Positions 10,541 through 37,166 are shown, numbered from the stretch's first letter. The stretch: 64,000 bases of DNA from an uncultured Bdellovibrionales bacterium (GCA_964384235.1 CAYLJX010000004.1:15916-79915), one strand, 5' to 3'. Numbers and translations: made by a program. Notes: generated by a model from the sequence alone, not told the origin.

Positions 10541-10640
10541 GAAGAATCAGGAATTACGAATCATGAATCAAGAATAGACAAACAAGGGAAGAAATGCAAT
10601 TCCTCGCTCTTGATTCTCAATTCTTGATTCTTTATTCTGC
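10541..10640. repeat. inverted pair of 7-bp tandem-repeat arrays: (NNNGAAT)x5 at 10541-10577, 26-bp spacer, (ATTCNNN)x4-5 at 10604-10640
   Basis: Read directly from the sequence: gaagaat caggaat tacgaat catgaat caagaat ... ctcttg attctca attcttg attcttt attctgc. The element fills the gap between the murF stop and the DUF475 start. Confidence 0.6.
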
Positions 10641-10641
10641 T

Positions 10642-11949
10642 TTACTCAGTCCACTCGGCAGGCGGTACGAAGGGTTTCTTCCGCCATTCTTCCGTCTGTC
10701 GGCAGAGCAGAGCCGGCGCCTCTTTCGGATTGATGAGCAGCTGTTCGACGATCGTCTCCATGCGGAGTCCCTGCGAACCCTTGATGAGGATGAGGTCTTC
10801 CGGATGCACGATGTGGAGAAGCATCTGGATCGCCGAGAGCGGATCGGGAAGCCACAGGACCTGGAGCGGCGGAAAACCGGATGTCATGAGGGCGTCATAC
10901 AGCGCCCGACTGTGTTTGCCCACCGTCACCACCATATGAGCCCCGGAACCGAGGACGGCATCCTTGAGGGCGGCATGTTCCCGATCGGAGTCGGGGCCGA
11001 GCTCCAGCATATCCCCCAAAACTGCGATCTTGCGCGGAGCGGACAGTTCCCGAAGCGTTTCGAGAGCAGCGACTGTCGATACCGGCGAGGCGTTGTACGT
11101 ATCGTCGATCAGGATGGTACCTTCCCTTCCCGGCAAGAGCCGCAACCGTCCCGGGAGCGGTTCGAAGCGCTCCAATGTTCCGGCGATCTCGACCAGGTTC
11201 ATCTTGAGCGCGAGTCCCACGGACACCGCCGAGAGCGCCGCCGGGATATGATGACGTGCGATGAGCTTCGGCAGACGAAGCGGAATCGTCTTGCCGTCGA
11301 AGTTGAGCTTCAGACTGTACCCTTCGACCCGCTTGGCTTCTCGATGAAAAAGAATGTTATCCGCCCGTACTGCCGCACCCTCGGAAAATCCGTACGACAG
11401 CACTTTGGCCTTGGTCTTCTCCGCCATCTTCAGCGTACGCTTGTCATCCGCGTTCACGACAGCGAACCCGTCTTCTGGAAGTCCGACGATCAGGCGTCCT
11501 TTTTCTTTGGCGATATTGGTGATCGATCCGAAAAATTCCATGTGGCTCGACGACACCCCCGTCGCGACACCGACCTTCACCGGCACGAACGACAGGAGAT
11601 AGTCCATATCTCCCGGCCGATCGATTCCCATTTCCAGTACCAGTACCTGGGGATACCGCGTCGGAACCAGCATGAGCCAGAGGAAACGGAAACCCACTCC
11701 CGCCCAGCGAAAGAGGGAACTATTGCCGCTCCTGGCACCCAGGATAGTGAGCGGGATACCGACCTCGTTGTTGTAGTTCCCTTCGGATTTCCGGACATGG
11801 AACTGCGAAGAGAGCACGAGCGCGATCGCTTCCTTGGTCGAGCTTTTTCCCACCGAACCGGTCACTCCCACCACAAGCGGCTCATATTTCCGGAGTACCG
11901 CCTGGGCCATGAAGCGCAGGATCTGTTCCAACAGTTTTCTTTTTGTCAT
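10642..11949 (-). CDS. murF: UDP-N-acetylmuramoyl-tripeptide--D-alanyl-D-alanine ligase
   Basis: Mur ligase motifs are present (GVTGSVGKSSTKE, DDTYNASP). The start is placed at ATG 11949 (MTKRKLL...), giving a 4-nt overlap with the ftsI stop. The ORF track's 34-aa extension is unlikely to be real. Confidence 0.85.
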   Translation of the reverse strand: MTKRKLLEQILRFMAQAVLRKYEPLVVGVTGSVGKSSTKEAIALVLSSQFHVRKSEGNYNNEVGIPLTILGARSGNSSLFRWAGVGFRFLWLMLVPTRYPQVLVLEMGIDRPGDMDYLLSFVPVKVGVATGVSSSHMEFFGSITNIAKEKGRLIVGLPEDGFAVVNADDKRTLKMAEKTKAKVLSYGFSEGAAVRADNILFHREAKRVEGYSLKLNFDGKTIPLRLPKLIARHHIPAALSAVSVGLALKMNLVEIAGTLERFEPLPGRLRLLPGREGTILIDDTYNASPVSTVAALETLRELSAPRKIAVLGDMLELGPDSDREHAALKDAVLGSGAHMVVTVGKHSRALYDALMTSGFPPLQVLWLPDPLSAIQMLLHIVHPEDLILIKGSQGLRMETIVEQLLINPKEAPALLCRQTEEWRKKPFVPPAEWTE

Positions 11950-13724
11950 AACGGCTTTTTCTTCACTTCTTCCGTCGGCTGCACCTTGGAATACTCTAAC
12001 AGGAATTTCATGATCTGGCCAAAGGTCGGCGCGGCGCTCGACTCCGCCCATTCCACGTCCTTAGGGTTGTCGATCTTGACCAGGACGACGAACTTCGGAT
12101 CATCGATCGGAGCGTACCCGACGAACGAACCGATCGACACACCCTCCTCATACCCCTTGGCATCGCTCTTGGCTACCTGCGCCGTGCCCGTCTTGCCCCC
12201 GACGAGATATCCCGGCACATCGGCCCGCTTGCCATGGCCGTTCACGACGACGTTCCGGAGCATTTTGCCGATCTTCCGGCTCGTTTCCTCGCTTAAGACC
12301 TGGCGGATCGTCTCCGGTCGCACGTCCTCCACATCGCCGTCCGCATGGACGACACGGCTCACCAGATGGGGGCGCATGAGTCTGCCGCCGTTCGCGAGCG
12401 CCGCATAGGCCGTCACGAGCTGCAGGGGCGTCACCGTGATGCCCTGACCGAACGAGGCGGTGTAGAACTGGATATCACGCCGCGTATCCTCGAGATGGCG
12501 GATATTTCCGGAGAGCTCCGCCGGCAACTGCACGCCGGTCTTCTCACCGAAACCGAAACGTTTGAAATAATTCCTGAAGGCCGTGTTGCCGACGAGCTTT
12601 TCCACATAGATGACACCCGTATTGATGGATTCCTCCAGGACCTTGGTCATCGAGCTTTTCCCATACACCTTGTCTTCCGAGTTACGGATATGGTACCCGC
12701 CGATGCTCACCACGCCCGTATCGACATATTCCGTGTCCGGCGAGACTTTCCCTTCCTCCAGACCGATAGCCATCGTGATCGGCTTGATCACCGAGCCGGG
12801 TTCGTAGGAGAGGCTCACGGCCGGGTTGAGGAAGCGCGAGTAATCCGTCTCCTCGGAATACCGGTTCGGGTCGAACTGCGGCAGGGACGCCATCGAGAGG
12901 ACGTTCCCGGTCCCGGGATCCATGACGATCGCCGTCACCCGGTCGGCCCGGAATTTTTCCAGCGCCTCCTTGAGGATCTTTTCCGTCTCGTACTGGATGA
13001 CCCGGTCGAGCGTCAGTACGAGAGAGTCGCCGTTTTTCGCGCCGACGACCTCCCGGTCGGAAAACGGGATCCAGCGACCGGCCGCATCCTTCTCCTGGGA
13101 GAGTCGCCCGTCCTGCCCCTTGAGCGCGGCATCGAAAGACGTCTCTATGCCGTACCCGCCGGCCCCCCGCTCATCCAGACTCGCGAACCCGATCACCTGC
13201 GAAGCGAGCTCTCCCGCCGGATAATACCGGTACTTCTCGGGAAGAAGCGCCACTCCGCGGAGTCGCAGCTCTTTCACGCGCGACACCTCGTCGTCACTCA
13301 AGCGTTTCTTGACGATCTCGAACGGATCGTCGGGGCGATCGAGTTTCTCCCGGATGGTCCCGGCATCCAAGGAAAGGACCCGGGACAGTTCGATGGCGGT
13401 CCGGTCCTTCTCGGTCACGTCCTTGGGGACGACGTAGACCGTCTCGTACTCGCGATTGATGGCTATAGGATACGTTCCCTCGCTGTCGCGTATGGATATC
13501 TCTCCCCGGTCGGCGATGATGTCCTGAAAGAGGAAATGCTGGTCGCCGGCAAGCGCCGTCCACTTGTCATGCCCGTATACCTGGAGGAAATACAGCCGGA
13601 CCGTGAGTGCCGCTCCGATCAGAAGAAAAAAGACAAAAAAAAGACGAAGTCTCGTCCCTTCCCCTAATGTCCACCCGGATACCGTTTGCGGTTTGGAGCG
13701 TGAGTGAAAGGAGATCTTGCGCAT
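11946..13724 (-). CDS. ftsI: peptidoglycan D,D-transpeptidase (class B PBP, FtsI-like)
   Basis: 592 aa. N-terminal TM segment. Motifs SxxK (GSVIKP) and KTG (GKTGTA) are present. The gene sits at the ftsI position of the division/cell-wall cluster. Confidence 0.85.
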   Translation of the reverse strand: MRKISFHSRSKPQTVSGWTLGEGTRLRLFFVFFLLIGAALTVRLYFLQVYGHDKWTALAGDQHFLFQDIIADRGEISIRDSEGTYPIAINREYETVYVVPKDVTEKDRTAIELSRVLSLDAGTIREKLDRPDDPFEIVKKRLSDDEVSRVKELRLRGVALLPEKYRYYPAGELASQVIGFASLDERGAGGYGIETSFDAALKGQDGRLSQEKDAAGRWIPFSDREVVGAKNGDSLVLTLDRVIQYETEKILKEALEKFRADRVTAIVMDPGTGNVLSMASLPQFDPNRYSEETDYSRFLNPAVSLSYEPGSVIKPITMAIGLEEGKVSPDTEYVDTGVVSIGGYHIRNSEDKVYGKSSMTKVLEESINTGVIYVEKLVGNTAFRNYFKRFGFGEKTGVQLPAELSGNIRHLEDTRRDIQFYTASFGQGITVTPLQLVTAYAALANGGRLMRPHLVSRVVHADGDVEDVRPETIRQVLSEETSRKIGKMLRNVVVNGHGKRADVPGYLVGGKTGTAQVAKSDAKGYEEGVSIGSFVGYAPIDDPKFVVLVKIDNPKDVEWAESSAAPTFGQIMKFLLEYSKVQPTEEVKKKPL

Positions 13725-13756
13725 AAGGGGGAAAAGTCAGGAAACAGGAAAGGGAT

Positions 13757-14107
13757 CTACCGCAAGGCGACCTTGCCGCGCTCCTCGAGATAGATGACGT
13801 TATCGGGTTTCTGCATGTTCCCCACCTCGCCCGACGACTCCAACCGATAGAGCGAACGCAGGTCGGCTTCCGTGATCTTGAGCTCGGCATTCTCCTCCTT
13901 GAGCCGGTCAATCTCCTTTTCCAGAGTACGGATATGATAACCCTGTACCGCGCTTTGGTTGACCGAATACAGATACCACCCTCCCATGACGAAACAGGTC
14001 ATCAATACACCGATGAGGTACGGATGCACCGAACCGGAGACACTCTTCTTAGGAGACCTCGCGGGAACGGTCGGCTGGTTGTGCTGTACCATACGGCGCA
14101 TACGCAA
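13757..14107 (-). CDS. ftsL: cell division protein FtsL-like (TM anchor plus coiled coil)
   Basis: 116 aa. One TM helix followed by a heptad region (LEKEIDRLKEENAELK). Lies between rsmH and ftsI. Confidence 0.55.
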   Translation of the reverse strand: MRMRRMVQHNQPTVPARSPKKSVSGSVHPYLIGVLMTCFVMGGWYLYSVNQSAVQGYHIRTLEKEIDRLKEENAELKITEADLRSLYRLESSGEVGNMQKPDNVIYLEERGKVALR

Positions 14108-14163
14108 AAAGGATTCGATCAGGTTGTATATTGGTTTTTCTTTTCGGTCCGAAGCTTTCTGCT

Positions 14164-15171
14164 TCAGATCTTTTCCGCGACACGGAGCTTGGCGCTCCGG
14201 GCCCGTGGATTGTCCTCGATCTCTTTCTTGGTCGGAATGATCGGGCGTTTCGTGATGATCTTCAATCGCGGAGACTGCCCGCAGCGACAGACCGGGAACT
14301 CAGGGGGGCAGACGCAGCCGCGAGCCTCTTCCTGAAAGAACCGCTTCACCGCCCTGTCCTCGCCGGAATGAAACGTGATGACCGCCAACCGGCCGCCGGA
14401 TCGAAGCATCCGCATCGCCGCCGGCAGGAACCGCTCCAGACGTTCCTCCTCACGATTGACCGCGATACGGAGTGCTTGGAACGTTTTCGTCGCCGGATGG
14501 ATGCTCATCCGGAAACGCCGTCGTTTCGGATAGGCGCTCTCGATGAGATCCGCGAGCGCTCTGGTCGTCGCGATCGGTTTCTCTGTTCTCGCCGCGACGA
14601 TCGCTTTCGTAATGCGACGACTCTCCGGTTCCTCGCCGTAGTCGTGAAAGATCTTTTCGAGCTCTTCCGGAGCGTACGTATTGACAATTTCGTCCGCCGT
14701 CAACGTTTCGCTTCGATCGAGACGCATGTCGAGCGGCCCGTCCTTCTGAAAAGAAAGTCCGCGCGCATCACTCTCGATCTGATCCGACGAAAACCCCAGG
14801 TCGGCGAGGATCGCATCGACACTCGACACGCCGATCGCCGTCAATCGTTCCTCGAGATCGGCGAAGTTGCTCCGCAGCATGAGAAGTGTTCCCTCCTTGA
14901 ACGCTTCCCGTGCATACGGGACATCCGCGAGCCGATCCTGGAAACGATCGATGGCTTCCTGGTCGGTATCGAATGCGATGAGTCGACCTTCCGGCCTGCC
15001 CGAATCGCAACGCTTCGCTTGCGAATCGTTGCGGGCGGGACGGACGCGCTCGAGCATGGCGAGCGTATGCCCGCCACCGCCCAAGGTCGCATCCACCACC
15101 GTCATTCCTTTGGCAAGGTGCAGCCCTTCCACTGTCTCTTTCAGCAATACCGGAATATGTTTCGTCTTCGA
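14164..15171 (-). CDS. rsmH: 16S rRNA (cytosine1402-N4)-methyltransferase
   Basis: MSKTKHIPVLLKETVEGL..., DATLGGGGH, and the conserved RsmH/MraW C-terminus. The start is placed at ATG 15171. Confidence 0.85.
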   Translation of the reverse strand, partial: SKTKHIPVLLKETVEGLHLAKGMTVVDATLGGGGHTLAMLERVRPARNDSQAKRCDSGRPEGRLIAFDTDQEAIDRFQDRLADVPYAREAFKEGTLLMLRSNFADLEERLTAIGVSSVDAILADLGFSSDQIESDARGLSFQKDGPLDMRLDRSETLTADEIVNTYAPEELEKIFHDYGEEPESRRITKAIVAARTEKPIATTRALADLIESAYPKRRRFRMSIHPATKTFQALRIAVNREEERLERFLPAAMRMLRSGGRLAVITFHSGEDRAVKRFFQEEARGCVCPPEFPVCRCGQSPRLKIITKRPIIPTKKEIEDNPRARSAKLRVAEKI

Positions 15172-15180
15172 CATACAACC

Positions 15181-15290
15181 CAAAACTCAAAAGTCAAAAG
15201 AAATGTCACGCCTGAAAACTTTTTTCACTTTTGATTTTTGACTTGTACTTGTCTTTCGGTTTTCCCTGTTGCCTATCGCCTACTGCCTAT
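15181..15290. repeat. inverted heptamer arrays (CAAAAGT)x3 at 15181-15201, 18-bp spacer, (ACTTTTG-type)x4 at 15227-15254, then (YGCCTAY)x3 at 15270-15290
   Basis: Read directly from the sequence. The arrays fill the mraZ-rsmH intergenic gap, which is normally very short. Confidence 0.55.
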
Positions 15291-15300
15291 ATTTCCTGTC

Positions 15301-15735
15301 CTAATACACTCCCAGCTTCCCAAGCTCCTCCGCGATCTTGCCCGTGTTCTTCTCGGCGGACTGCTTGTACTTCTTCCACTTCTCTTCGCTCCAGATTTCC
15401 AATCGGTTATAGAGTCCCACCACGACCACGTCCTTCCTGAGTCCCGCGTACGACTTGAGGTATTCCGGCACGAGCACGCGGCCCTGACTGTCGAGATCGA
15501 CGTCCGTCGCGCCCGCGAGCATGAGCCGGATGAAACTGCGCGTCCCCGCCTCGCCGACCGGGAGATTGCCGAGCTTCTCGGCGAGTCCCTCCCACACCTT
15601 CATCGGATAGACAAAGAGACAGTCATCGAGACCGCGCGTCACCACCACGCGGCTCCCGAGCTCCCCGCGGAACTTCGAAGGAAGCGCGAGGCGCTTCTTG
15701 GGATCGATGGTATGTGAGTATTCGCCGATGAACAT
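15301..15735 (-). CDS. mraZ: transcriptional regulator MraZ
   Basis: MFIGEYSHTIDPKKRLALPSKFR matches the MraZ N-terminus. The start is placed at the internal ATG 15735. The ORF track's 42-aa extension to 15861 is judged spurious. Confidence 0.85.
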   Translation of the reverse strand: MFIGEYSHTIDPKKRLALPSKFRGELGSRVVVTRGLDDCLFVYPMKVWEGLAEKLGNLPVGEAGTRSFIRLMLAGATDVDLDSQGRVLVPEYLKSYAGLRKDVVVVGLYNRLEIWSEEKWKKYKQSAEKNTGKIAEELGKLGVY

Positions 15736-15931
15736 GACGCTCGGAAAAGGAATTACTCCGCGACGAAAACCAAAATGAAGAAACTTCAGAGAAAACATTT
15801 TCCCCCTGAAATGTTTCAAAGAAGATAGTGGTGCCTTTTCAAGTTCCCCACTTTCACCCACTTTGGTTCACCGTATCCCCATTGTACGCCACCCCTCCAC
15901 CCCCGTCAACATTCCGACTTATCCACAACAA

Positions 15932-15953
15932 AAACGGCTCTGCAGAGCCGTTT
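15932..15953 (-). terminator. perfect 22-bp palindrome aaacggctctgcagagccgttt; likely intrinsic terminator of pepA (minus strand)
   Basis: 11-bp perfect stem. On the minus strand it is followed by UUUUGUUGUGG. Lies about 200 nt downstream of the pepA stop. Confidence 0.45.
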
Positions 15954-16159
15954 ACCAACAAACCAAGAGTTTTCAAAACTTTCATTTTCTTTCTCCGTGT
16001 GACGTCGGTAACATTTCTCACGAACGAGCCGGTAACGGTCGAGCGTGACAGATGGTCTCGACAGGACAGCTCCCCGTTCGGCAGAGTGAGTAAGAAATGT
16101 TCGACGGAACGAAAGGGAAAGAAAATGCAAAGATTTTGAAAACGTTCCGTTAAATCTAA

Positions 16160-17563: not shown

Positions 17564-17714
17564 AACCTTATCCGTTTATGGAAGTAGTATCCTACCATGT
17601 TTTAAAAAAAAGAAAAACCCGGGGCCATGTTGGACCGCCGGGGAAACCCGTCGAAGGTGGGAGGTTCCTTCACCAGGAAAGGGCTCGTTACATGCTTCTC
17701 AATACGAGAGACGG

Positions 17715-17861
17715 TTACTAGGAACCGTCTTCCTCGTGATCGTCGTCTCCGCCCCTTACCGGTTCATCGAGCTTCTCTTCGCTCGTTTCCGGATTCTCCG
17801 AAAAGTAACGATGACTGGTCAGCATGAACACCAGCCTTACAACAGTATCCGACACCTGCAT
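17715..17861 (-). CDS. possible small acidic protein (48 aa), speculative
   Basis: ATG preceded by GGAGAGAG. The stop codon lies in the loop of an 8-bp hairpin (17710-17731). The ORF is below the track's length cutoff. Confidence 0.25.
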
Positions 17862-18054
17862 ACTCTCTCCTTCCCATTCCAGTTGTTAAGATCCTAAAAA
17901 ACAAAAACGGCCGCGCGCAACGGTGGGTCGTTTTTCTCTGTGCCAAAATCCCCTCAGGCACCAAGAGAGTCTAGCACGGATTCCTCCCCATGTCAATTCT
18001 CACAAGAAAAGCAAAAGACCCGCGAGCAGATCTTCTGCTTACGAGCCATAGCTC

Positions 18055-18405: not shown

Positions 18406-18481
18406 GATTTCTCTCCTTGTTAAGTTTCTGTCCAAATGGACTCCCGACGATACCATGTATCCCATCTTTTGTCCGCTTCCG

Positions 18482-19705: not shown

Positions 19706-19711
19706 AGCAGG

Positions 19712-19990: not shown

Positions 19991-20037
19991 GGGAAAAGAT
20001 GTAAATACTTAAAGAGTGAGAGTGTATATTTACATTT

Positions 20038-20847
20038 TTAAATCTGTAGGGTGATCCCGATAGGACAGTGGTCCGAGCCGGTGACTTCGGGCAGGATGAA
20101 GGCGTCTTTGACATGCTTCCGCAGGCTCCCACTCACGAAGAAATAATCGATACGCCAACCGATATTCCGCGCCCGGGCATTGGCGAAATGGGACCACCAA
20201 GTGTAATACCCCGTTCCCTCGTGAAATATTCGGAAGGTGTCGACGAAACCGCTTGCTATTACCCTGTCGATGCCCTCGCGCTCCTCGTCCGTGAACCCGT
20301 GTTTCCCGACGTTGTCCTTGGGCCGGGCCAGATCGTCTTCCGTATGGGCCACGTTGAGGTCGCCGCAGAAGATGACGGGTTTTTTCTTTTCCAAATCCTT
20401 CACATAGGCGAGAAACGCCGGATCCCAATGCTGGTGACGAAGTTCCAACCGGCTCAGGTCCTCTTTGGAATTGGGCGTGTAGACCGTGACGACATAATAT
20501 TTCTCGAACTCAGCCGTGATGACGCGCCCTTCCCTGGCGGCATCGCGCGCCGCCCCGTCGATGAAACGGTACTTCTTGGAAAAATCGTCCGGATACCCGT
20601 TGATGACCGCGATCGGTTTCACCTTGGTAAAGATCGCCGTCCCGGAATACCCCTTCTTCTCGGCGGAGTTCCAATACTCCTCATAGCCGGAAAGATCGAT
20701 CTCCGCCTGCCCCTGAAGCGCCTTGGTTTCCTGGAGACACAGGATGTCCGGCCGGTATTTCTCGATGAACGGCAAAAAAAGACCTTTCCTATGCACGGCC
20801 CGGATGCCGTTGACATTCCAACACAAAAGCGTGAGCGGTTTGGACAT
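20038..20847 (-). CDS. xth: exodeoxyribonuclease III (AP endonuclease)
   Basis: LLCWNVNGIRA, LCLQETK and the C-terminal DHCPI motif. Confidence 0.9.
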   Translation of the reverse strand: MSKPLTLLCWNVNGIRAVHRKGLFLPFIEKYRPDILCLQETKALQGQAEIDLSGYEEYWNSAEKKGYSGTAIFTKVKPIAVINGYPDDFSKKYRFIDGAARDAAREGRVITAEFEKYYVVTVYTPNSKEDLSRLELRHQHWDPAFLAYVKDLEKKKPVIFCGDLNVAHTEDDLARPKDNVGKHGFTDEEREGIDRVIASGFVDTFRIFHEGTGYYTWWSHFANARARNIGWRIDYFFVSGSLRKHVKDAFILPEVTGSDHCPIGITLQI

Positions 20848-20859
20848 ATGATTGAAGAA

Positions 20860-20887
20860 GTGAGTAGTGGGTAGTTGGTAGTGAGTA
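20860..20887. repeat. tandem heptamer array (GTKRGTA)x4: gtgagta gtgggta gttggta gtgagta
   Basis: Read directly from the sequence, 13 nt upstream of the xth start codon. Confidence 0.5.
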
Positions 20888-20926
20888 GTCTATGAAAACC
20901 AAGGGGGCATTCCCATTGTAGCGGCA

Positions 20927-27019: not shown

Positions 27020-27101
27020 TTTGTTTTTCCTCCTTTTTTTCCTTCTTATTGTATCATACCCTCCCCTTCATCCTCTCGTCTCCCCTCTCCTCCCTCCTCA
27101 T

Positions 27102-27129
27102 TCCTGTCTCCTACTTCCTATCTCCTACC
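27102..27129. repeat. tandem heptamer array (TCCTRYY)x4: tcctgtc tcctact tcctatc tcctacc
   Basis: Read directly from the sequence. Overlaps the 3-prime end of gene 27125-28531. Preceded by a CT-rich tract (27061-27100). Confidence 0.45.
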
Positions 27130-28531
27130 TTTCCTCCCACAGGTCCATCTCGTACTGCGTCCCGGTGGGGAAGAACGGCGGCGGACAGTACAGGAGATTA
27201 TTGTCATAGGAGAGATTGCGCGTGGCATATCCGGTCCCGTCCGTCCAGGCGAATCCGTACCGCTGGTTGGTCGCGATCGCGCCGTAGACGGTGATGACGC
27301 TTTTCGTTATCCCTCCGCTATAGTGCGCCCGTCCGACACGCCCGGTCTGAGCCAGGAGCGCACCGTCGATCCGCAGATCGTCTTCGCTTCCCTTGTATAT
27401 CTCTATATCGTCCTGCCCGATGATACCGACGACGTCCGGGCAATCATTGCCGGTGATGTCGTAGTCGGTATAGCGGATGTCCTTGCCGATGTAGATACTC
27501 TTGAGCGATGACGAAATGAGATTGGCCGCCACGATCGTCACCCGCTTGTCACTCACCGTCCCCTCGAGCCAGACGTTGTTCTCGACGAAGATGACCCCCT
27601 CATCAGGAATGGTGTAGGTCGACCAGCCGCCCTGATAGTTGTTGATCTCGTTGGTAGAGGAGACGAAACTCCGCACCGTCCGGATACTGAACGTACCGTC
27701 GGCATTGAGAATGATATGCCGTCCCTGGTGCACATTGTCAAAATAGAGACTCCCGTTCGTTCCGGCCTGGGCCTCGCTCTTGATATAGGAAAGATCGCCG
27801 AGCACCCCGTTGAAGTCGGTCGAGGCGACCGGAAAGGTCCGTCCGCTCTCGAAGACGTCCGGGCGGTCCGGAACGGCCGTCGGAGGCAGAGGATCGGTCG
27901 GACTGTCATGCGTATGCACGCCGAACTCGTTCCCGCCGGTATGATCCTGATCGTTGTAGTCCGAGACGGCGCTTGAGACGACGTTGTGCGCCAACCCGTC
28001 GAACCGGATGCCCTGGTTGGAATGGATCTTGCCGAAGACTTCCGTCCCTGCCCCGAAACGGAGGTAATCATTGGCGAGCACGATATGCTCGCTCCAGGCC
28101 GGTTTGCGCAGACGCACCTCGATGATACGCGTCACGTCCGGATACCGGTAGGTCCAGCCGGTCGCCCTGACGATGACCACCGACGACCCCGTCGGCGGCG
28201 GGGTCACTTCGAGCCGGTACTTGCCGATAGCGCTTCCTCCCGGATCCTGGTATTCCACCTCATAGGGCGTGGCGACACCGTAGGGATTGCCCGTCTCCCA
28301 GAAATCAGCCACCTGCTGCGCGGTGCGGCCCTCCACCTGGTGCGCCAGGTACCAGCGGTAGAAATGGATGCCGGACTCCGCGATCTGGAAGGCCTGTTCC
28401 CTGGCGTGCACCGTGAGGGCATACTTGGTCTGCGACGCGATAAAGCTCACGATGGCCGTCAGGATGATCGCCACCATCGTCATGATGATGATCCCGTACG
28501 GCAGGATGGATCCCTTGAGCGCTCTATTCAT
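27125..28531 (-). CDS. pilus-associated large protein with N-terminal TM anchor (PilX/PilY-like role conjectural)
   Basis: The start is placed at ATG 28531 (MNRALKGSILPYGIIIMTMVAIILTAIV...), which overlaps the upstream stop by 8 nt. 469 aa. Lies between the pilin genes and pilM. Confidence 0.5.
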   Translation of the reverse strand: MNRALKGSILPYGIIIMTMVAIILTAIVSFIASQTKYALTVHAREQAFQIAESGIHFYRWYLAHQVEGRTAQQVADFWETGNPYGVATPYEVEYQDPGGSAIGKYRLEVTPPPTGSSVVIVRATGWTYRYPDVTRIIEVRLRKPAWSEHIVLANDYLRFGAGTEVFGKIHSNQGIRFDGLAHNVVSSAVSDYNDQDHTGGNEFGVHTHDSPTDPLPPTAVPDRPDVFESGRTFPVASTDFNGVLGDLSYIKSEAQAGTNGSLYFDNVHQGRHIILNADGTFSIRTVRSFVSSTNEINNYQGGWSTYTIPDEGVIFVENNVWLEGTVSDKRVTIVAANLISSSLKSIYIGKDIRYTDYDITGNDCPDVVGIIGQDDIEIYKGSEDDLRIDGALLAQTGRVGRAHYSGGITKSVITVYGAIATNQRYGFAWTDGTGYATRNLSYDNNLLYCPPPFFPTGTQYEMDLWEER

Positions 28532-29156: not shown

Positions 29157-29157
29157 A

Positions 29158-30567
29158 TCAATTGGGAGTCATCTGGATATTTTCCGTCACCAAGGCACTA
29201 CCGACACCGACGGTCTTCGTCTCGGTACCGAATCCCGAAGCGGTCACCTCGACATCGTATGAACCGTTGACCAGGGCCGGGAGCGACGTCGGGAAATACG
29301 CGATACCGTACTGGTCCGTCGTGACCGTCGCATCATATGGGACGGACGTATTGGTCAGCCGGACGCTCGCCCCGGAAACGGGAGAATCGTCCGCCGAGCT
29401 CTTCACCGTCACCTTCACGGAACCGATGTTCTTGTCGAGGAGGATCGCTTCCATCGTGCCGGACGATCCCGGGACGAGATCCATGACATCGGCCGTCGAC
29501 GATGTTTCCGGATGCATCTTGTAAAACTCGTAATCAGCGTCGGAAACGGTCAGCGTATACTGACCGTAACTCTGGTCGGAGTAGGTCTTCTCGCCGGAGC
29601 TGTCCGTGGTTGACGTATCGGAAAAACCATAGACGTTCGCTCCGGTACCCGCATCCGTCCCAAGGACCCGGCCGCCGGAGAGCGTGAAGCCGATATCCGG
29701 GACATCCGTACCGAACGGATCCTTGGTCCGGAGCGGGATATCGACGTTTTGGTCCATGACGATCGTCTTCTGATTGAGGGTAGCTTCCACGACCGAGGCA
29801 TGAACATCGACCGGGTTGTACGCGGACGTCGGATAGGACGCGTATGTGGTCGCACCGTAATAGCCGCCCTTGGAAACGGTGAGAGTATAGGCTTCGACAC
29901 CGGCCGGCGCACCGGGAAGCATCACGTTGCCGGTCGAATCGGTCGTGGCGGTCGTGTCGATGCTCGCACCCGAATTGACGATGCGCACGCTCGCGCCCGA
30001 TACCCCGCTCCCGGTCGCATCCAGGACATTGATGGAAAGCGTCCCGCCGCCGCCGGACGTCTCCACGCCGTTGGGAGAGAAATTTCCGAAGATGACGACT
30101 TTCTGGTCATCCCCTCCCCCTCCCCACTCGACCGTGAGGCGGACGCGCTTATAATCGGTCGAAACCGTGTCATTGGGCGAGCCGCCGATCGTTCCGTCGA
30201 ACGAGTCGTCGACGTACTGCACGAAGGTATGCACGTCGTATCTCACCGTGTTGACACTGATCGTCTCGTCCTCCAGGAGTTCGCCGCCCGGGATACCATA
30301 GAGCCACGCCGACCCGTTCCAGCGCTTGGTACCGATGTCGTCATAGGCGATGCTCCGGATGATCTCCATCTTCTGGTTAGCGAGAGCCGTCGCGCCGAGA
30401 CGGTTCTTGGACTCGATGATCATACGCGTCCCCGTAGCATACACCTGAAAGAAGACCACCCCAATCAGAGCGAAGATGAACAGGAAAACGAGGGATTCAA
30501 TCAGGGTGAAGCCCTTTAACTTTGTATCTTGTATTTTGTATCTTGTATTTTGTATTGAAGAATTCAT
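29158..30567 (-). CDS. large prepilin-type protein (about 470 aa)
   Basis: The start is placed at ATG 30567 with leader MNSSIQNTRYKIQDTKLKG, then FTLIESLVFLFIFALIGVV. The GGAG RBS is about 10 nt upstream. The ORF track start at 30588 is less likely. Confidence 0.7.
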   Translation of the reverse strand: MNSSIQNTRYKIQDTKLKGFTLIESLVFLFIFALIGVVFFQVYATGTRMIIESKNRLGATALANQKMEIIRSIAYDDIGTKRWNGSAWLYGIPGGELLEDETISVNTVRYDVHTFVQYVDDSFDGTIGGSPNDTVSTDYKRVRLTVEWGGGGDDQKVVIFGNFSPNGVETSGGGGTLSINVLDATGSGVSGASVRIVNSGASIDTTATTDSTGNVMLPGAPAGVEAYTLTVSKGGYYGATTYASYPTSAYNPVDVHASVVEATLNQKTIVMDQNVDIPLRTKDPFGTDVPDIGFTLSGGRVLGTDAGTGANVYGFSDTSTTDSSGEKTYSDQSYGQYTLTVSDADYEFYKMHPETSSTADVMDLVPGSSGTMEAILLDKNIGSVKVTVKSSADDSPVSGASVRLTNTSVPYDATVTTDQYGIAYFPTSLPALVNGSYDVEVTASGFGTETKTVGVGSALVTENIQMTPN

Positions 30568-30618
30568 AAAAGTCCGTCTCCGCATCATACGAGATACTTG
30601 ATACAGGATACGAAATAC
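30522..30618. repeat. inverted heptamer arrays: (TTGTATY)x5 at 30522-30556, 34-bp spacer, (NNGATAC)x4 at 30591-30618
   Basis: Read directly from the sequence. The first array encodes the prepilin leader residues IQNTRYKIQDTK. The second lies immediately after the pilC stop. The spacer holds the pilin RBS and ATG. Confidence 0.55.
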
Positions 30619-31839: not shown

Positions 31840-31859
31840 AGCCGATTTGGTATGTGTTT

Positions 31860-31900
31860 TTGTGTGATTCCATTATATCACACACGCCGGTTCCCTTGTC
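31860..31900 (-). promoter_or_regulatory. candidate pil promoter: extended -10 TGATATAAT (plus coords 31871-31879 as attatatca) overlapped by inverted repeat gtgtgat/atcacac
   Basis: The -10 is seen on the minus strand 25-35 nt upstream of the pilC ATG. The 7-bp inverted repeat 31861-31867 and 31877-31883 flanks it. Confidence 0.4.
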
Positions 31901-31917
31901 TCTTGTCGTTTGATCCC

Positions 31918-32841
31918 TTACGCGCCGAGACGCGCCTTGAACTGCTCGAACACCCTCGGGCCACGAGGCTTGGGAAGAAAGATGAGCGCGCGATCGTGCG
32001 CCTCGATGTGACTCCCCTCGAGAGCCGTCTTGGGATTGCGACGGATCTTTTCCTTCTGCCACGAGCCGAGCCAGTCTTCGACCGGGAAGAAATCCAGCAC
32101 CTGCTCGAGGAATCGCTGCACACTCACGGCCAGACGGGACGACGGCACCGACCACGTGCTCGCAATGAGCGTCGGAGCGAAGTTCGGCTGGTATTCGCGG
32201 ATCCAGCGGTTCTTGCGTTCGAACGTCTGATAAAGCGGAAAATTGATGAGTGGGATGAGGAAGCGGTACTCATGGGCCGAGTAGAGATCCTTGATCCCGA
32301 TCTCGAGATGATCGTCCGTCACGAAGTAGTTGAGACAGGCGCGATCGGTCACCTTGTTTCCGTGACGGCGCTTGCCGATCATATGGAGGAAGCCTGTGAG
32401 AACCGTCCGTCCCGTCCAGATCCTCCCCGACTTGAGCACGACGAACATGTCCCAGTCGCTCTTTTTGCTTCCGTGCTTCATCGAGAGGCTCCCGGTCGCT
32501 CCTACCATCCGGACATACGGCACGAAGGCGAGCAATCGCGCGAGGCGACGCTCCCGCTTGAGTTTCCGGACGGAGATCTTTTCCAGGCGGATGCGTTCTT
32601 CCACCAGTCGGTCGCGACCCTTGAGAAAAAAGAAGCCGTCTTTCCGTCCGAGTTTCTCCCGGCAAAAGTCGGAATCGAGGAGTGTGACGATATCGGACAG
32701 CTTGGATGGCACGGCGCACAGGTCGTTGTCACGCTCGTATACGATGAGGTGCCGCCATATCTCGAACGCCGTGAGCGGCATATCCATCACGTCGTAGTAC
32801 GTCACCGTCGCGAGAATATTTTTGGAAAGCTGGTACGACAT
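31918..32841 (-). CDS. pol-beta-superfamily nucleotidyltransferase-like protein (orphan)
   Basis: 307 aa. GATGSLSMKHGSKKSDWDMFVV fits the G[GS]-x(9-13)-DxD NTase motif. A later VTDDHLEIG may supply the third acidic residue. Confidence 0.5.
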   Translation of the reverse strand: MSYQLSKNILATVTYYDVMDMPLTAFEIWRHLIVYERDNDLCAVPSKLSDIVTLLDSDFCREKLGRKDGFFFLKGRDRLVEERIRLEKISVRKLKRERRLARLLAFVPYVRMVGATGSLSMKHGSKKSDWDMFVVLKSGRIWTGRTVLTGFLHMIGKRRHGNKVTDRACLNYFVTDDHLEIGIKDLYSAHEYRFLIPLINFPLYQTFERKNRWIREYQPNFAPTLIASTWSVPSSRLAVSVQRFLEQVLDFFPVEDWLGSWQKEKIRRNPKTALEGSHIEAHDRALIFLPKPRGPRVFEQFKARLGA

Positions 32842-32845
32842 AAGA

Positions 32846-32933
32846 GAGGCAATAGGCAGAAGGCAGAAGGCGGTCCAGAAAGAGCATTCTTATCTCATCC
32901 CTACTGCCTCAGTATCTATTGCCTACTGCCTAT
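32846..32933. repeat. inverted heptamer arrays: (NAGGCRR)x4 at 32846-32873, 28-bp spacer, (TGCCTNN) units at 32902-32933
   Basis: gaggcaa taggcag aaggcag aaggcgg ... tgcctca ... tgcctac tgcctat. The element fills the gap between the uvrA stop and the NTase start. It shares the gcctactgcctat 13-mer with 15278-15290. Confidence 0.5.
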
Positions 32934-35735
32934 CTACAAGTATTTCGAAGTAAAGCTCTTCTTGCAAGATTTCAGTTTGTTCGGCGGACCGGCGAAGATG
33001 AGCTCGCCGCCTTTTTCACCACCCTCGGGACCGAGTTCCAGAACCCAGTCCGCCGAGCGGATGACATCGGTGTTGTGCTCCACCACAAGGACGGTATTGC
33101 CTTTATCGACGAGCGCTTCGAGCACTTCGAGCAGTCGCCGCACGTCCTCGAAGTGCAGCCCGATGGTCGGTTCGTCGAGGATGTAGAGCGTCTTGCCGGT
33201 CGATTTGCGAGCAAGCTCGGTGGCAAGCTTGATACGCTGCGCCTCACCGCCGGAGAGGTTGGTCGCACTCTGACCGAGGACGAGGTAACCGAGGCCAACT
33301 TCTTCGAGCACGCGGAGTTTCTCCTCGATCATCGGCTGATCAAGGAAAAAGCGTCTCGCCTCCGTCACGGTCATGCGCAGGATCTGGGCGATGTTCATCC
33401 CGCGGTACTCGATGGAGAGCGTCTTCATGTTGTAACGCGTCCCCTGACAGACCTCGCACGGGATATAGACGTCCGGTAGGAGGTACATCTCGATCTTTTT
33501 CAGTCCCCCACCCTGGCACGTCTCACAGCGTCCGCCGCGCATATTGAAGGAAAAGTGGCTGGCGGAATACTTTTCCCGTTCAGCCTCCGGCGTCGCGGCG
33601 AAGAGGTCGCGGATGAGCCCAAAGACCCCGGTGTAGGTGGCAGCGTTGGAGCGCGGCGTGCGACCGATCGGATCCTGCGTCACGGCGATCACCTTGTCGA
33701 TATGGTCGAGACCCGTGATCTTCTTGTGCGCGCCCGGCTCGGCCTTGGCATGATAGAAATGCTTGGAGAGCGCCCTCGAGAGGATGTCATGGACGAGGCT
33801 CGACTTGCCGGAGCCGGAGACTCCGGAGACCGCGACGAGCATCCCGAGAGGGATCTTAGCATCGACGTTTCGGAGGTTATGCTCCGTCGCGCCGACGATC
33901 TCAATGGACTTGCCGGATCCTTTGCGGACTTTTTTCTTGGAAGAGACGCTTCGCTTACCGGAGAGGTACTGGCCGGTCAGGAGTTTGGAACGCATGAGCT
34001 TTTCCGGCGTCCCTTCGAAGATGACCTCGCCGCCCTCGCTCCCCGCACCGGGACCCATGTCGATGATATAGTCCGCTCGGCGCATGATGGCGACATCGTG
34101 CTCCACGACGACGAGGGAGTTGTTGGCCGAGCGCAGTTCCTCGAGTGCATTGATGAGCTTCTCCGTATCGCGGCTATGCAGCCCCACCGACGGTTCGTCC
34201 AGGACATAGATGATGCCGGAGAGTCCCGACTTCATCTGGACCGAGAGACGGATACGCTGCGCCTCGCCGCCGGAAAGGGTGTCAGCTCCGCGGGAAAGTT
34301 CGAGATAACCGAGACCCACCTTTTCCACCGAACGCACACGCATCTCCATCTCACGGAAGAGCGGATCGACGATGTCTTTCTCCCCGACTTTGAGAAGCGC
34401 CTCGCGCAGGGGTTTCAGTTCCGTGAGAAATTTCTCGACACTCCGGTCGACGATCTCGTTCATGGAGAGGCCGTTCACCTTGACCGACAACGATTCGGGC
34501 TTGAGCCGCTTGCCCTGGCAGTCCGGGCACGTCTTGGAAAGCATGTAGGTCTCGATCTCGGCGCGCAGATGGTCGGATTTGGTATCGCGGTATTTCTGCT
34601 CGAGGATCGGGATGACGCCGGGAAAAACATTTTCTTTCCCTCCCTCCTCTCCGAAGAGGACGAGCTTCATCTGCTTCGCGGACAGTTTCTTAACCGGGAT
34701 GTCGAGGGAAAATTTAGATTTCTTGGCGAGCTCACGAAGGAGCAACATCGGACCGCTCTGGGCGTGCCGATCACCGTTCATTTTGCTCCAGGGACGGATG
34801 GCACCTTCGGAAAACGAGAGGTTCTTGTTGGGGATGACGAGCTCCGGATCGAATTCCAGTGTCCGCCCGAGACCCGAACACTTTGGACAGGCCCCTTCGG
34901 GAGAGTTAAAGGAAAAATGACTCGGGGTGAACTCGGGCAGATGCACGTCGCACTCCTCGCAGCGGTACTCCTCGTTGTAGACGCGTTCCTCACCAGAACC
35001 GTTGATGCGAAGCGTGAGCGTCCCCTGTCCGACACGAAAAGCAGTCTGCAGGGAATCCAGGATGCGCTCCTTGTCCGGACGGACGGCGGAGAGCGCCATG
35101 CGATCGATGACGATACCGATGGTCGAGATATCCGAAGGAGAGGCTTCCGCAATAGCCTCGGCGATGGGGCGGATCTCGCCATGGAAGAGCACCCGAACAT
35201 ACCCCCACCCGTCGATCTGTGAGAGCACTTCTTTCTCCGTCTTTTCCACGAGGAGCGGACTGTAGGCCAAAAACGCGAGCGGCGTCTCATCGGGCAGAAG
35301 CAGGATCTCGTCGAGGATTTCCCGCACGCTCTTGCGTGAGAGCGTCTTGCCACACTGAGGACAATGTGGGACACCAAGCTTGGCGAAGAGGATACGCAGG
35401 TAGTCGTAGACCTCGGTCATGGTGCCGACCGTCGAGCGCGGAGAGCGCGACACGCTCTTCTGATCGATGGAGATGGCCGGCGAGAGGTTGTGAATGGCGT
35501 CCACGTCCGGCTTGTCGAAGCCTTCCATGAAGTTTCTCGCGTACGAGGAGAGCGATTCGACATAACGGCGGTTGGCCTCTGCAAAGAGCGTATCGAAGGC
35601 GAGCGATGACTTGCCCGAACCGGAGAGTCCCGTGATGACGACAAGCGAATCACGCGGGATATCGACCGAAACGTTCTTGAGATTATTGACACGCGCTCCC
35701 CGGACTTCGATCACCGACTTCTTGTTGTTTGGCAT
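32934..35735 (-). CDS. uvrA: excinuclease ABC subunit A (canonical, with insertion domain)
   Basis: 933 aa. Two ABC modules ([19 protein letters not shown]), zinc-finger cysteine pairs, and about 100 aa of insertion-domain region between CPKCSGLG and CPDCQGKRL. Confidence 0.9.
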
Positions 35736-35757
35736 ACCACCTTTATGCGCTAAAAAA

Positions 35758-35774
35758 GAGAAACATTGTTTCTC
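35758..35774. promoter_or_regulatory. perfect palindrome GAGAAACA-T-TGTTTCTC, 23 nt upstream of the uvrA start codon
   Basis: 8-bp arms with a 1-nt centre. Preceded by an A-run, and followed on the minus strand by a U-tract. Candidate operator or attenuator between uvrC and uvrA. Confidence 0.4.
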
Positions 35775-35828
35775 AGTCTACTCCCTTTTCCGAGCGTGGT
35801 CAATACGAGAAGGTATGTGGATAACCTG

Positions 35829-37166
35829 CTACCGCAGGAATTCCTTACCGCGACGGCGGCGATGAAAGACGATGGCAAAACGGTGGGCTTCGCCGTTCGC
35901 GAGGAGGATGTCTTTTTTGAAACGCTTGACGAGCGACTGGTCGCCGACGAAACTTTTCGGCTGGTGTCGCTCGTCCTTGACGACACCGAGCACGGGAATG
36001 GTGAGGTGCACTTGTCGCAGGACCGAGAGCGCGACGCTCCGCTGCAGTTCCCCTCCGTCTACCACTATCATATCCGGAAGCGACCATTCGGTATGCCCGA
36101 GACGCCGCGTGAGGATTTCCCTGAGAGCCGTGAGGTCGTTTCCTTGGTGATCGCCTCGCAGACGGAATTGCCGATATTCGTCCTTGTCCGGTCGACTCCC
36201 CTCCACTACTGTCATGACCCCGACGCTCGCCACTCCCTGGAGATGTGCCACGTCATACGCCTCAATCCGAATTCTTGATTCTTGATTCTCAATTCTTGAT
36301 TCTTCCTTGATGAGCGCTATATCCTGGATATGTTGCAACCCGTAGAGGGTGTTGCGAAGCTCGGCCGCCCGTTCGAATTCCATCGCCTTCGCCGCCGCCT
36401 TCATTTCCCGCTCGAGACCCTTCACGAGTTTCTGCTTGTGCCCCTCGAAGAAGAGTCGGATATGCTGGATGGTCCGGCCGTACTCCCGTACGCTCACCTC
36501 TCCCGTACACACCCCGGGACACAGTCCGATCTGCCTGTTGAAACACGGGCGCACGCCTGTGTCCCGGACTCGATCCGGGACCCTCCCGTTACCACGAGAT
36601 CCCGAATCGCGCTTCGCTTGTCCGGGATGCTTCGCCGTTCTTTCGAACGGCTCGCATTTGTCCCTATACGGAAACAGTTTTCGCACGATCTTCATCGCCT
36701 CTTTCAGTCCCAGTCCCGAGAGGAACGGACCGAACATGTATTTCACTTTCGCGTCGAACTTCCCCTGCTCGATGTCTCGGCCGCGAACGATGAGCACCCG
36801 CGGGAACGGCTCGTCCGTGATGACGACATGGTTGTAGCTCTTGTCGTCCTTGGCGTCGGTGTTGTAGGGCGGCTGATGCTCCTTGATGAGACGCGATTCG
36901 AGGATGAGCGCCTCAAGGACCGAATCGGTCTGCCGGTAGGCGATGTACGAGACCTTGGGCAGCATGAGCGCGATCTTGGGGCCTCTCGTCTCCATCAGGT
37001 CGCTTGCGAAATAGCTCCGCACCCGGTCGCGCAAGGACGTCGCCTTGCCGATATAGAGGAGCGTTTTGGTCTCATCCAGGAAGAAGTACACCCCTGGATG
37101 CTCCGGCAGGGCGTTCTTCTTCTGAAACGACAGAAGCGTATGCGATTTTTCCCACAGTGTAGCCAT
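35829..37166 (-). CDS. uvrC: excinuclease ABC subunit C (short form, no C-terminal HhH pair evident)
   Basis: GIY-YIG motif (GVYFFLDE...[13 protein letters not shown]), UvrBC-interaction region and endonuclease domain. The start is placed at ATG 37166 (MATLWEK...). The ORF track's 24-aa extension would overlap the divergent gene. Confidence 0.8.
36271..36305. repeat. tandem heptamer array (ATTCTTG)x5 embedded in frame in uvrC coding sequence
   Basis: attcttg attcttg attctca attcttg attcttc on the plus strand encodes ...[16 protein letters not shown]... in UvrC. It is the same unit family as the 10541-10640 intergenic element. Confidence 0.5.

Follow-up and report, generated by a model that had tools for sequence, protein, structure and literature searches.

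Heptanucleotide arrays in the window

The DNA analysed here is a 64,000-nucleotide (nt) stretch recorded for an uncultured Bdellovibrionales bacterium (GCA_964384235.1 CAYLJX010000004.1:15916-79915), referred to below as the window. Tandem arrays of 7-nt units are found between and inside its genes, which include those for DUF475/TerC, a Mur ligase, RsmH, MraZ, PilM, PilC, a pilin-like protein, UvrA and UvrC. The arrays are probably heptanucleotide simple-sequence repeats born by slippage, the Patescibacteria version of a class that is known in Xanthomonas, in Nostoc and other cyanobacteria, and in Beggiatoaceae, and here they would form stop-to-start hairpins. Their units are AT-rich, are repeated 3-10 times in tandem, and hardly occur outside non-coding spacers except in coding segments that tolerate them, namely a prepilin leader and a UvrC linker. 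In this compact genome, an inverted pair and its partly paired middle fill the whole gap from the stop of one gene to the start of the next.

A first-pass annotation, made from the sequence alone, had named seven loci with 7-bp tandem arrays, and all seven were recovered by direct reading and with Tandem Repeats Finder (TRF). Its gene names were also largely borne out: DUF475/TerC, Mur ligase, RsmH, MraZ, PilC and the pilin-like protein were confirmed by Pfam search, which also identified PilM, and UvrA and UvrC by the Pfam families on record. The label "NTase" for a gene of 307 amino acids (aa) rests only on a sub-threshold match (MTPAP-like palm, E 0.08), and this gene is called the 307-aa gene below. 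All arm and array sequences are given in gene sense, which is the minus strand for every array listed; the TRF units are given as reported by the program.

Four inverted pairs had been proposed and four were found. The first pair lies between the Mur-ligase stop (10642-10644) and the DUF475/TerC ATG (10535-10537), which has no Shine-Dalgarno sequence (SD). Its start-proximal arm (10538-10575; ATTCTTG ATTCATG ATTCGTA ATTCCTG ATTCTTC AGA) adjoins the ATG, its stop-proximal arm (10598-10641; GAATAAA GAATCAA GAATTGA GAATCAA GAGCGAG GAATT) directly follows the stop, and the apical part, or "spacer" (10576-10597), is largely paired with a 6-nt loop. TRF reported 4.9 copies of AAGAATC at 10542-10575 and 4.4 copies of TCTTGAT at 10608-10638. 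In the second pair, the start-proximal arm (15175-15203; CTTTTGA CTTTTGA GTTTTGG GTTGT) adjoins the rsmH ATG (15172-15174) and is followed by a distal arm at 15216-15252 (ACAAGT ACAAGT CAAAAAT CAAAAGT GAAAAAAGT); here TRF gave 2.9 copies of CAAAAGT at 15181-15200. The same gap holds a further array at 15268-15290 (TAGGCAG TAGGCGA TAGGCAA), 11 nt past the mraZ stop (15301-15303). The third pair is placed differently, with one arm inside the pilin gene (30521-30556; five units of AATACAA/GATACAA; TRF: TTTGTAT, 5.1 copies, perfect at period 14), where it encodes the prepilin leader IQNTRYKIQDTK immediately before the G/FTLIE cleavage motif. Its spacer (30557-30584) contains the pilin SD (GGAG) and ATG (30565-30567), and its other arm lies directly past the pilC stop (30585-30618; AGTATTTC GTATCCT GTATCAA GTATCTC GTATGAT). 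The fourth pair joins the uvrA TAG stop (32934-32936), directly followed by the stop-proximal arm (32899-32933; ATAGGCAG TAGGCAA TAGATAC TGAGGCAG TAGGG), to the ATG of the 307-aa gene (32839-32841), which adjoins the start-proximal arm (32842-32873; CCGCCTT CTGCCTT CTGCCTA TTGCCTC TCTT; TRF: AGGCAGA, 2.6 copies at 32854-32871).

Within a pair, the arms share a 4-5-nt core as reverse complements. Three genes (DUF475, rsmH and the 307-aa gene) have both arms upstream, the first 0-11 nt past the preceding stop and the second ending 0-4 nt before the ATG; the earlier description, in which the arms flank the ribosome-binding site and start of the downstream gene, is true of the pilin gene only. The central segment that had been described as a spacer exists but is mostly base-paired, so each inverted element is one long quasi-palindrome centred in the middle of the gap.

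The remaining named loci carry arrays of other kinds. The array at 20859-20889 (CTACTCA CTACCAA CTACCCA CTACTCA; TRF: AGTGAGT, 4.4 copies) ends 11 nt before the ATG of the Exo_endo_phos gene (20845-20847), has no inverted partner and is absent from orthologues. A four-unit array annotated at 27102-27129 is present, but is really the tail of ~10 purine-rich units at 27060-27130 (TAGGAGA TAGGAAG TAGGAGA CAGGAAT GAGGAGG ...; TRF: CTCCTAC, 3.3 copies at 27108-27130), which run from the TAG stop (27125-27127) of a PilX-like gene towards pilM. Every unit of this NAGGAGA repeat holds an SD-like AGGAG core, and the true pilM SD is further downstream. The in-frame uvrC array (36271-36305; GAAGAAT CAAGAAT TGAGAAT CAAGAAT CAAGAAT; TRF: ATTCTTG, 4.9 copies at 36271-36304) follows the conserved HIQDIALIK and overwrites a length-variable linker between two conserved motifs; this array and the one in the prepilin leader lie in coding sequence, as had been annotated. 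Outside the seven loci, an array at 46431-46465 (ATTTCAT ATCTCCT ATCTCAT ATACCTC ATATCTC) adjoins the ATG (46428-46430) of a 161-aa membrane protein. Another at 47217-47262 (CTTTTCT TGTTACT TGTCCCT TGTCTCT TACTCCT TATCATCT) adjoins a probable ATG at 47214-47216, an uncertain start assignment because the open reading frame (ORF) stays open across the array. One more array lies upstream of nrdD on a same-organism contig, ~7 kb past the right edge of the window.

Certain loci share sequence, as the first-pass annotation had observed. The stop-proximal arm of the first pair and the uvrC array have the exact 25-mer TCTTGATTCTCAATTCTTGATTCTT in common (10608-10632 and 36280-36304; 0 matches expected), and the 13-mer GCCTACTGCCTAT is present at 15278 and 32921. 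The unit family at 15268-15290 is common to 32899-32933 and 27100-27130, and at least three families (GAAT/ATTC, TAGG/CCTA and GATAC/GTATC) occur at 2-3 loci each.

Two further properties of the units were observed. Over 35 nt, the array within uvrC (gene sense GAAGAATCAAGAAT...) and the start-proximal arm of DUF475 show 89% complementarity (36271-36305 and 10541-10575), and the uvrC and DUF475 mRNAs could in principle pair in trans. In addition, TAG-containing heptamers (TAGGAGA, TAGGCAG) begin at or just past the TAG stops of three genes (27125-27127, 32934-36 and 15301-03), and repeating such a 7-nt unit over 21 nt puts a stop in each of the three reading frames. The idea that units carry stops to close all frames is true for the TAGG family and the ATTC-arm junctions; it fails for the Exo_endo_phos, 46431 and 47217 arrays.

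Host lineage and translation starts

The best matches of PilC, at 82-83% aa identity, belong to Candidatus Moranbacteria of the Patescibacteria, or candidate phyla radiation (CPR), with remoter matches in Parcubacteria and Saccharibacteria. Based on these relatives, the window was placed in Candidatus Moranbacteria. A recognisable SD precedes only ~12 of the 37 called genes (starts from the calls of L001, L166 and L167), and at most starts the ATG follows a pyrimidine-rich stretch (...CT/TT ATG), so that translation initiation in this Moranbacterium seems to do largely without an SD.

Excess of period 7 over controls

TRF listed 10 period-7 rows in the window, ~7-fold the average of 1.4 from 40 shuffles that preserve dinucleotides, and 6 period-14 rows where the same shuffles gave 0.2. 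This excess bears out the shuffle check proposed in the first-pass annotation and supports the treatment of the seven loci as one non-random phenomenon, and it extends beyond the window. Across a lineage sample of 1.36 Mb of related Patescibacteria loci, 54 non-overlapping TRF arrays of at least 3.5 copies had period 7, compared with 12 at period 6, 4 at period 8 and 6 at period 9. With a fixed lag test that required at least 17 matches in 21 positions and filtered out low complexity, lag 7 was flagged in 14 of 371 Moranbacteria-like intergenic regions and in 11 of 264 from other Patescibacteria. None of 190 was flagged in a mixed control of RsmH matches at 41-49% identity, of which a non-CPR majority was assumed without a taxonomy check. 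The RsmH metagenome scan behind this control returned matches of at most 51% identity and gave little for orthology except L086 and L099; the remainder served as the negative control. Other lags flagged ~0-1% of intergenic regions, and lag-flagged bases amounted to 7.7-11.7 per kb in intergenic against 0.6-0.8 per kb in coding DNA. Array density per 100 kb was ~6.6 in Moranbacteria-like, 19 in other Parcubacteria-like and 3.4 in Saccharibacteria loci. The feature is real and statistically robust, and the heptamer arrays are a lineage-wide feature.

Chance low complexity or an assembly artefact would be suggested by the composition, since the units are AT-rich (77% A+T on average) and so is intergenic DNA. 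However, neither the shuffles, the other lags nor the reverse-only and complement-only controls described below reproduce the signal, and identical arrays occur in independent assemblies from ~nine metagenomes. This reading, to which we attach practically no probability, is refuted by the controls.

Anatomy of the arrays across genomes

Array anatomy was counted on 113 arrays of at least 3 copies in the related loci. Intergenic DNA makes up ~9% of the sequence and holds 64% of the arrays, and a further 17% are found no more than 60 nt into predicted ORFs. Arrays are ~3-fold under-represented where the neighbouring genes converge. Among 44 arrays in co-directional gaps, 17 begin no more than 5 nt from the upstream stop, and for 15 the distance from the array end to the downstream start is at most 11 nt.

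Of the 113 arrays, 31 (27%) have a reverse-complement partner at a distance of up to 130 nt (score at least 12), compared with one each in the reverse-only and complement-only controls; direct partners numbered 6. There are 17 explicit inverted pairs in nine genomes, and co-directional placement was seen for 15 of 21 classifiable pairs. One locus (L067) holds two different arrays, nested one within the other in the mirrored order A B loop B' A', that have variant units in common. The units are diverse, with 62 distinct canonical units among 111 arrays, and an identical unit occurs at two loci more often within a genome than between genomes (7.9% versus 1.45%; odds ratio 5.8, p = 2e-6).

Hairpins of another kind were also observed. 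GC-rich near-perfect hairpins stand in AT-rich Parcubacteria/Moranbacteria spacers of L054 (40-150), L056 (4530-4560 and 8620-8700) and L028 (the spacer between uvrA and the 307-aa gene, which folds at -84 kcal/mol, z = -9.3). They are REP-like (resembling repetitive extragenic palindromes), are repeated within L054, and have heptamer arrays on both sides.

Stability between strains and turnover between species

The window was compared with about a dozen strain-level contigs from ~nine metagenomes, which match it at 99-100% identity; metagenomes that contain this organism include SRR14023574, SRR25392349, SRR14932582, SRR16481186 and ERZ23499410. Contig L005 excepted, no indel or substitution was found among the contigs in any array, though nearby coding DNA has single-nucleotide polymorphisms. 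Protein clusters at 90% identity likewise had no length variants: the pilin cluster has one member, on 7 contigs, and the UvrC members are all of 445 aa. The arrays are therefore stable between strains, not hypervariable.

This stability bears on phase variation, in which expression of the pilin or of an adjacent gene would be toggled as one unit is added or removed. A frameshift-prone array in the 5' coding region of the major pilin gene, recurring there in 9 of 42 relatives and perfect at period 14 in the window, is what such a contingency locus could look like. However, copy number is identical in all strain-level contigs, the pilin and UvrC proteins are each of a single length, and most arrays are imperfect and lie beside housekeeping genes. 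These results contradict the slipped-strand contingency role that had been listed earlier; phase-variation loci were rejected as a class at the level of assemblies, and we regard this explanation as highly improbable.

Contig L005 shows a different kind of change. Its tract 32836-33105 is a diverged import with ~10% coding differences, in which the entire stop-to-start spacer 32842-32933 is replaced by another inverted pair, (TGAATGA)x6 ... (TCATTC)x3, that folds with z = -5.7. The boundaries between L005 and window sequence fall on the stop and start codons, and no target-site duplications were seen there. Wholesale spacer replacement between strains would be expected of miniature mobile elements or of elements like REPINs (REP doublets forming hairpins) or MITEs (miniature inverted-repeat transposable elements). 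A pair would then be a small non-autonomous hairpin insert, and shared sequences would be traces of transposition. The exact 25-mer and 13-mer common to distant loci, the insertion-like length differences of orthologous junctions, and the arrays that flank GC-rich perfect hairpins in L054, L056 and L028 point the same way. Against this, no two elements in 64 kb plus 14 kb share a spacer or a full-length sequence, no transposase or REP-associated tyrosine transposase (RAYT) was seen in the window, and partnerless single arrays are the majority. Together with the missing duplications, this makes a mobile origin very unlikely.

Between species the arrays differ in copy number and unit, with no intermediate divergence represented, as the nearest relative of the 307-aa protein outside this species is 67% identical. 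Orthologous spacers in relatives keep the architecture, in line with the conservation check proposed in the first-pass annotation. Given a base rate of 9.8% of gene-upstream regions with arrays, recurrence was significant upstream of the 307-aa gene (10 of 35 relatives, p = 0.0014) and downstream of pilC, in the pilin leader (9 of 42, p = 0.018); none was found upstream of uvrA, uvrC or the exonuclease gene (0 of 63). Inverted heptamer pairs also occupy the mraZ-rsmH junction of two other lineages (L086 and L099). The junction from uvrA to the 307-aa gene is only 2-20 nt long in many relatives and 60-170 nt where arrays are present, and for this reason the arrays look like expansions. Upstream of the 307-aa gene the units vary by clade, being of the ATTC type or the ATTAGAA type, and CTGCCTT in the window. 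Within clades the units persist even though four-fold degenerate sites are saturated (identity 0.3-0.5), and a GTATC/GATAC core is found at the pilin gene in the window, L010, L024 and L039.

The 307-aa protein (31918-32841) has ~500 homologues at E<1e-40 in an unnamed family with no Pfam domain, which appears largely Moranbacteria-restricted, judged from few named matches. Where its orthologue does not directly follow uvrA (L007, L008, L010, L012, L019 and L051), a conserved promoter-like motif, GTCAATAGTGAG...GAAAATGGTAAAAT, which includes an extended -10-like TGnTAAAAT, stands ~60-110 nt before the gene. In these genomes a heptamer array lies between the motif and the ATG, in the presumed 5' untranslated region.

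Persistent cores are also what binding sites would leave. Under this explanation the arrays would serve proteins with a ~7-nt footprint on single-stranded RNA or DNA (cold-shock proteins, S1, KH) or on duplex DNA (heptad sites such as the ToxR TTTTGAT), with one factor per family. Each unit has a conserved 4-5-nt core and 2-3 variable positions, mismatches cluster at particular unit positions (z ~3.3), unit families are genome-specific, and locus-specific cores outlast synonymous saturation (ATT at the 307-aa gene, GTATC/GATAC at the pilin). In the case of TAACTGA repeats, S1, Csp or CsrA were MacGregor's proposed binders (PMC4679880). However, the diversity of the units, with 62 canonical forms in 111 arrays and seven or more families in 78 kb of this genome, is too great for a few factors. 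Period-14 block duplication can imitate a core-plus-variable pattern without selection, and arrays next to starts have no strand bias across genomes. Binding-site arrays are therefore quite unlikely.

Iterons are direct repeats of 17-22 bp to which a Rep initiator binds at a replication origin. The units here are 7 bp long and scattered between housekeeping genes; the iteron-like sites and the tiny mobile element that the first-pass annotation had offered as candidates thus both lack their defining features.

Folding of the inverted pairs

Long interrupted hairpins are predicted for the four window pairs; relative to shuffles, their z-scores range from -2.7 to -5.9. Over the pair-containing spacers no sense-strand advantage was seen, with better folding of the sense strand in 6 and of the antisense strand in 6, and the antisense fold is much the more stable one at the pilin locus (-34.6 versus -21.2 kcal/mol). 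All six start-adjoining arrays of the window are pyrimidine-rich in gene sense; this bias was not found in other genomes (n = 23, p = 0.5-0.6), where there is no general strand bias. The idea that arrays replace the SD as a special property was rejected, since about two thirds of all called genes have no SD anyway.

Known RNA features were not detected. Rfam gave no match at the gathering threshold in the whole window, so that a known structured RNA of the Rfam type was discarded; ARAGORN found nothing in the window, and a promoter and terminator consensus scan of 9-28 kb listed no site inside any array. Intrinsic terminators consist of a short GC-rich stem followed by a U-tract. The stems here are AT-rich, no T-run follows them, and terminators were likewise rejected.

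The hairpins could still be selected cis-regulatory RNAs, for which the 7-nt period is merely the mode of building. A terminating ribosome would melt the base of the stem and free the start, giving coupling or re-initiation, or the stem would be a processing or stabilising site of the RNase III type. The geometry fits, with 0-11 nt both between the stop and the upstream arm and between the downstream arm and the ATG. Pairs are mostly in co-directional gaps (15 of 21), an SD can be recognised for only ~12 of the 37 called genes, the frequency of arrays at the same junctions in relatives exceeds the base rate, and both arms were changed jointly in L005 with the hairpin kept. On the other side stand the equal split between strands and the better antisense fold at the pilin, the 73% of arrays without a partner, the many orthologous junctions that are hairpin-free or only 2-20 nt long, and the pairs that occur in divergent and convergent gaps too. 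RNA hairpins controlling initiation, as envisaged in the first-pass annotation, thus remain the best functional candidate but lack strand-specific support, and we consider a selected RNA element possible, though the less probable account of the arrays.

Proposed origin and possible role of the arrays

We favour the origin by slippage. Loops of 7 nt escape mismatch repair, and arrays would be born and lengthened through slipped-strand replication. The polymerase footprint has been put forward as the reason why 7 is preferred (Mrazek et al. 2007, as cited in PMC4679880 and PMC4692102). Inverted pairs might arise by two routes. If a short hairpin was there first and grew on both flanks, the arms would be complementary in the core only, as they are in the first window pair; alternatively, inverted duplication, or template switching at a quasipalindrome, could copy a whole arm. 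Identical tracts at distant loci imply that units may spread to other loci by some ectopic copying step.

Once transcribed, a pair would form a long imperfect stem-loop whose base brings the upstream stop next to the downstream start, with the start region buried. Some arrays might be kept because the stem-loop tunes downstream expression, through start-site access, ribosome hand-over or mRNA processing. Such tuning is our guess; start-site accessibility and ribosome hand-over are plausible targets given that only about a third of called genes have an SD.

Several observations weigh against this account. Slippage itself was not observed, as the strain-level contigs have identical copy numbers and the 90%-identity protein clusters are without length variants. 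Mismatches cluster at particular unit positions (442 versus 396 +/- 14), and the ATT core upstream of the 307-aa gene is kept in 7-nt phase past four-fold saturation. Both suggest selection beyond neutral slippage and decay, although block (period-14) duplication and concerted evolution could mimic them. The variable positions of the arms in the first pair are not mirror images, so recent arm-to-arm copying is unsupported there. For the functional part, the partnerless 73% of arrays and the lack of a sense-strand folding advantage in pair-containing spacers count against an RNA role. The many orthologous junctions without any hairpin (z ~0, or a gap of 2-20 nt) do so as well, and mean that the hairpin is gained and lost and not universally required.

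A further reading goes beyond slippage. The arrays would be a selectively maintained, lineage-wide class near genes, at least in Moranbacteria and Parcubacteria, acting as stop-start-bridging "zipper" hairpins that hand over ribosomes in SD-poor genomes, or as arrays read by an RNA/DNA chaperone with a 7-nt footprint; the genome-specific unit families would then be a small regulatory code. The joint replacement of arms, the ATT and GTATC cores past saturation and the junction-specific recurrence keep this reading compatible with the data. We nonetheless judge it unlikely, and nothing here yet demands a new mechanism.

Bacterial heptamer repeats have been a loose end since 2007, in that 7 is favoured and the repeats are gene-adjacent for obscure reasons. 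Their presence at ~7-19 arrays per 100 kb in streamlined CPR genomes of ~1 Mb means either that the mutational pressure that makes arrays is very strong or that the arrays pay their way. The CPR also offer handles beyond Xanthomonas and Beggiatoa: the coexistence of many families, a hairpin geometry that runs cleanly from stop to start where SDs are scarce, and a natural pair swap at one junction. The streamlined setting, the geometry and the arm swap therefore make the old heptamer question more tractable. There are practical consequences as well. The arrays keep reading frames open and so mislead start calling (29158-30588 versus the called start at 30567; 46974-47327), and they write 7-aa-periodic peptides into prepilin leaders and protein linkers.

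Other features of the window

UvrC (35829-37166) is short, at 445 aa; the Pfam families on record are GIY-YIG, UVR, UvrC_M and RNase H-like, with no C-terminal helix-hairpin-helix listed. The small gene beside it (37215-37583) is highly diverged from contig L001 among strains that are otherwise 99-100% identical, with substitutions and indels clustered at ~37240-37620, and the region looks like a recombination or hypervariable tract. A second UvrA-like paralogue lies on the minus strand at 54203-56797, and its aligned stretches have 63-81% nucleotide identity to uvrA (32934-35735). Repeats of other periods were also seen: an in-frame 21-nt (7-aa) coding repeat at 52087-52372, with ~11 copies of acidic EDVEEIS-like units in the plus-strand ORF 51864-52469, and a separate 27-nt repeat of 2.5 copies at 42679-42746 (97% matches).

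Comparison with known repeat classes

Several familiar classes can be set aside by their defining features. Clustered regularly interspaced short palindromic repeats (CRISPR) have repeats of ~23-50 nt and unique spacers of similar length; here the units are 7 nt and abut directly. REPs, their mosaic elements (BIMEs), REPINs and MITEs are each a full-length element with defined ends, dispersed through the genome in many copies and, in MITEs, bounded by target-site duplications. Only unit-level sharing (the 25-mer and the 13-mer) was found here, with no full-length copies in 64 kb plus 14 kb, and the earlier exclusion of CRISPR and REP/BIME elements was therefore upheld. REPs proper are 20-40-nt imperfect palindromes of one sequence in hundreds of dispersed copies, mobilised by RAYT. 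The arrays resemble them as inverted doublets between co-transcribed genes that fold in mRNA, but have tandem-heptamer arms, are mutually different and come with no RAYT in the window. Contingency loci of host-adapted bacteria (reviewed in PMC4679880 and PMC4692102) share with the arrays a repeat tract whose unit length is not a multiple of three at the 5' end of a surface-structure gene, here the pilin. Unlike them, the arrays showed no copy-number polymorphism, have imperfect units and lie mostly beside housekeeping genes.

The first-pass annotation did not recognise the architecture as a described element class, yet heptamer repeats are known (PMC4692102, PMC4679880). The over-representation of heptanucleotide simple-sequence repeats in bacteria, as cited in these two papers, was reported for long simple sequence repeats by Mrazek, Guo and Shah (2007, PNAS 104:8472): 7 is the favoured length among repeats of 5-11 nt, the phylogeny is sporadic, and non-multiples of three are kept from coding DNA. 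The cyanobacterial short tandemly repeated repetitive (STRR) heptamers of Calothrix PCC 7601 (see also PMC4692102) have several unit families per genome, as here. As far as these surveys are summarised in the later papers, Patescibacteria were not included and neither stop-to-start hairpins nor an inter-strain unit swap is described. Our full-text literature searches found no report linking heptamer repeats to CPR/Patescibacteria.

The TAACTGA repeats of marine Beggiatoaceae, some Cyanobacteria and Bacteroidetes occur in 2-6 copies and are nearly all intergenic; the largest class ends ~1 nt before the start codon, canonical SDs are rare nearby, and there is no functional pattern downstream (MacGregor 2015, PMC4679880). 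The present arrays are similar in that heptamers end at start codons in an SD-poor setting. They differ in having many families, whereas TAACTGA is a single unit across phyla; in their frequent inverted pairs, compared with one "indirect repeat" among 170 sets; and in the lack of a general strand bias, where the orientation of TAACTGA is strongly biased to the downstream gene.

The closest match is the Xanthomonas GGGAATC repeat, together with the Nostoc GGGGA(C/T)T repeat (Rehm et al. 2015, PMC4692102), with which the arrays share a tandem anatomy of ~4 units, an intergenic location and inverted pairing. The Xanthomonas repeat has ~4 units with a conserved core and variable positions; repeats of the Xanthomonas/Nostoc type are 89-93% intergenic, mostly between co-directional ORFs and near an ORF end (PMC4692102). 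Two convergent sites able to form stem-loops were counted in 70-75 cases per Xanthomonas genome (of 186 and 183 sites), and the same junctions carry repeats in related species with varying length and sequence and with no link to gene function (PMC4692102). Those genomes have one G-rich family each, with G-quadruplex potential, whereas the arrays described here are AT-rich, with many families per genome and no G3 tract in any window unit. The Xanthomonas and Nostoc repeats also lie mainly near the upstream ORF end, while those of this streamlined CPR genome often adjoin the downstream start. The class itself is thus already described, and what is new here is a CPR, AT-rich, multi-family version that fills the entire stop-to-start gap.

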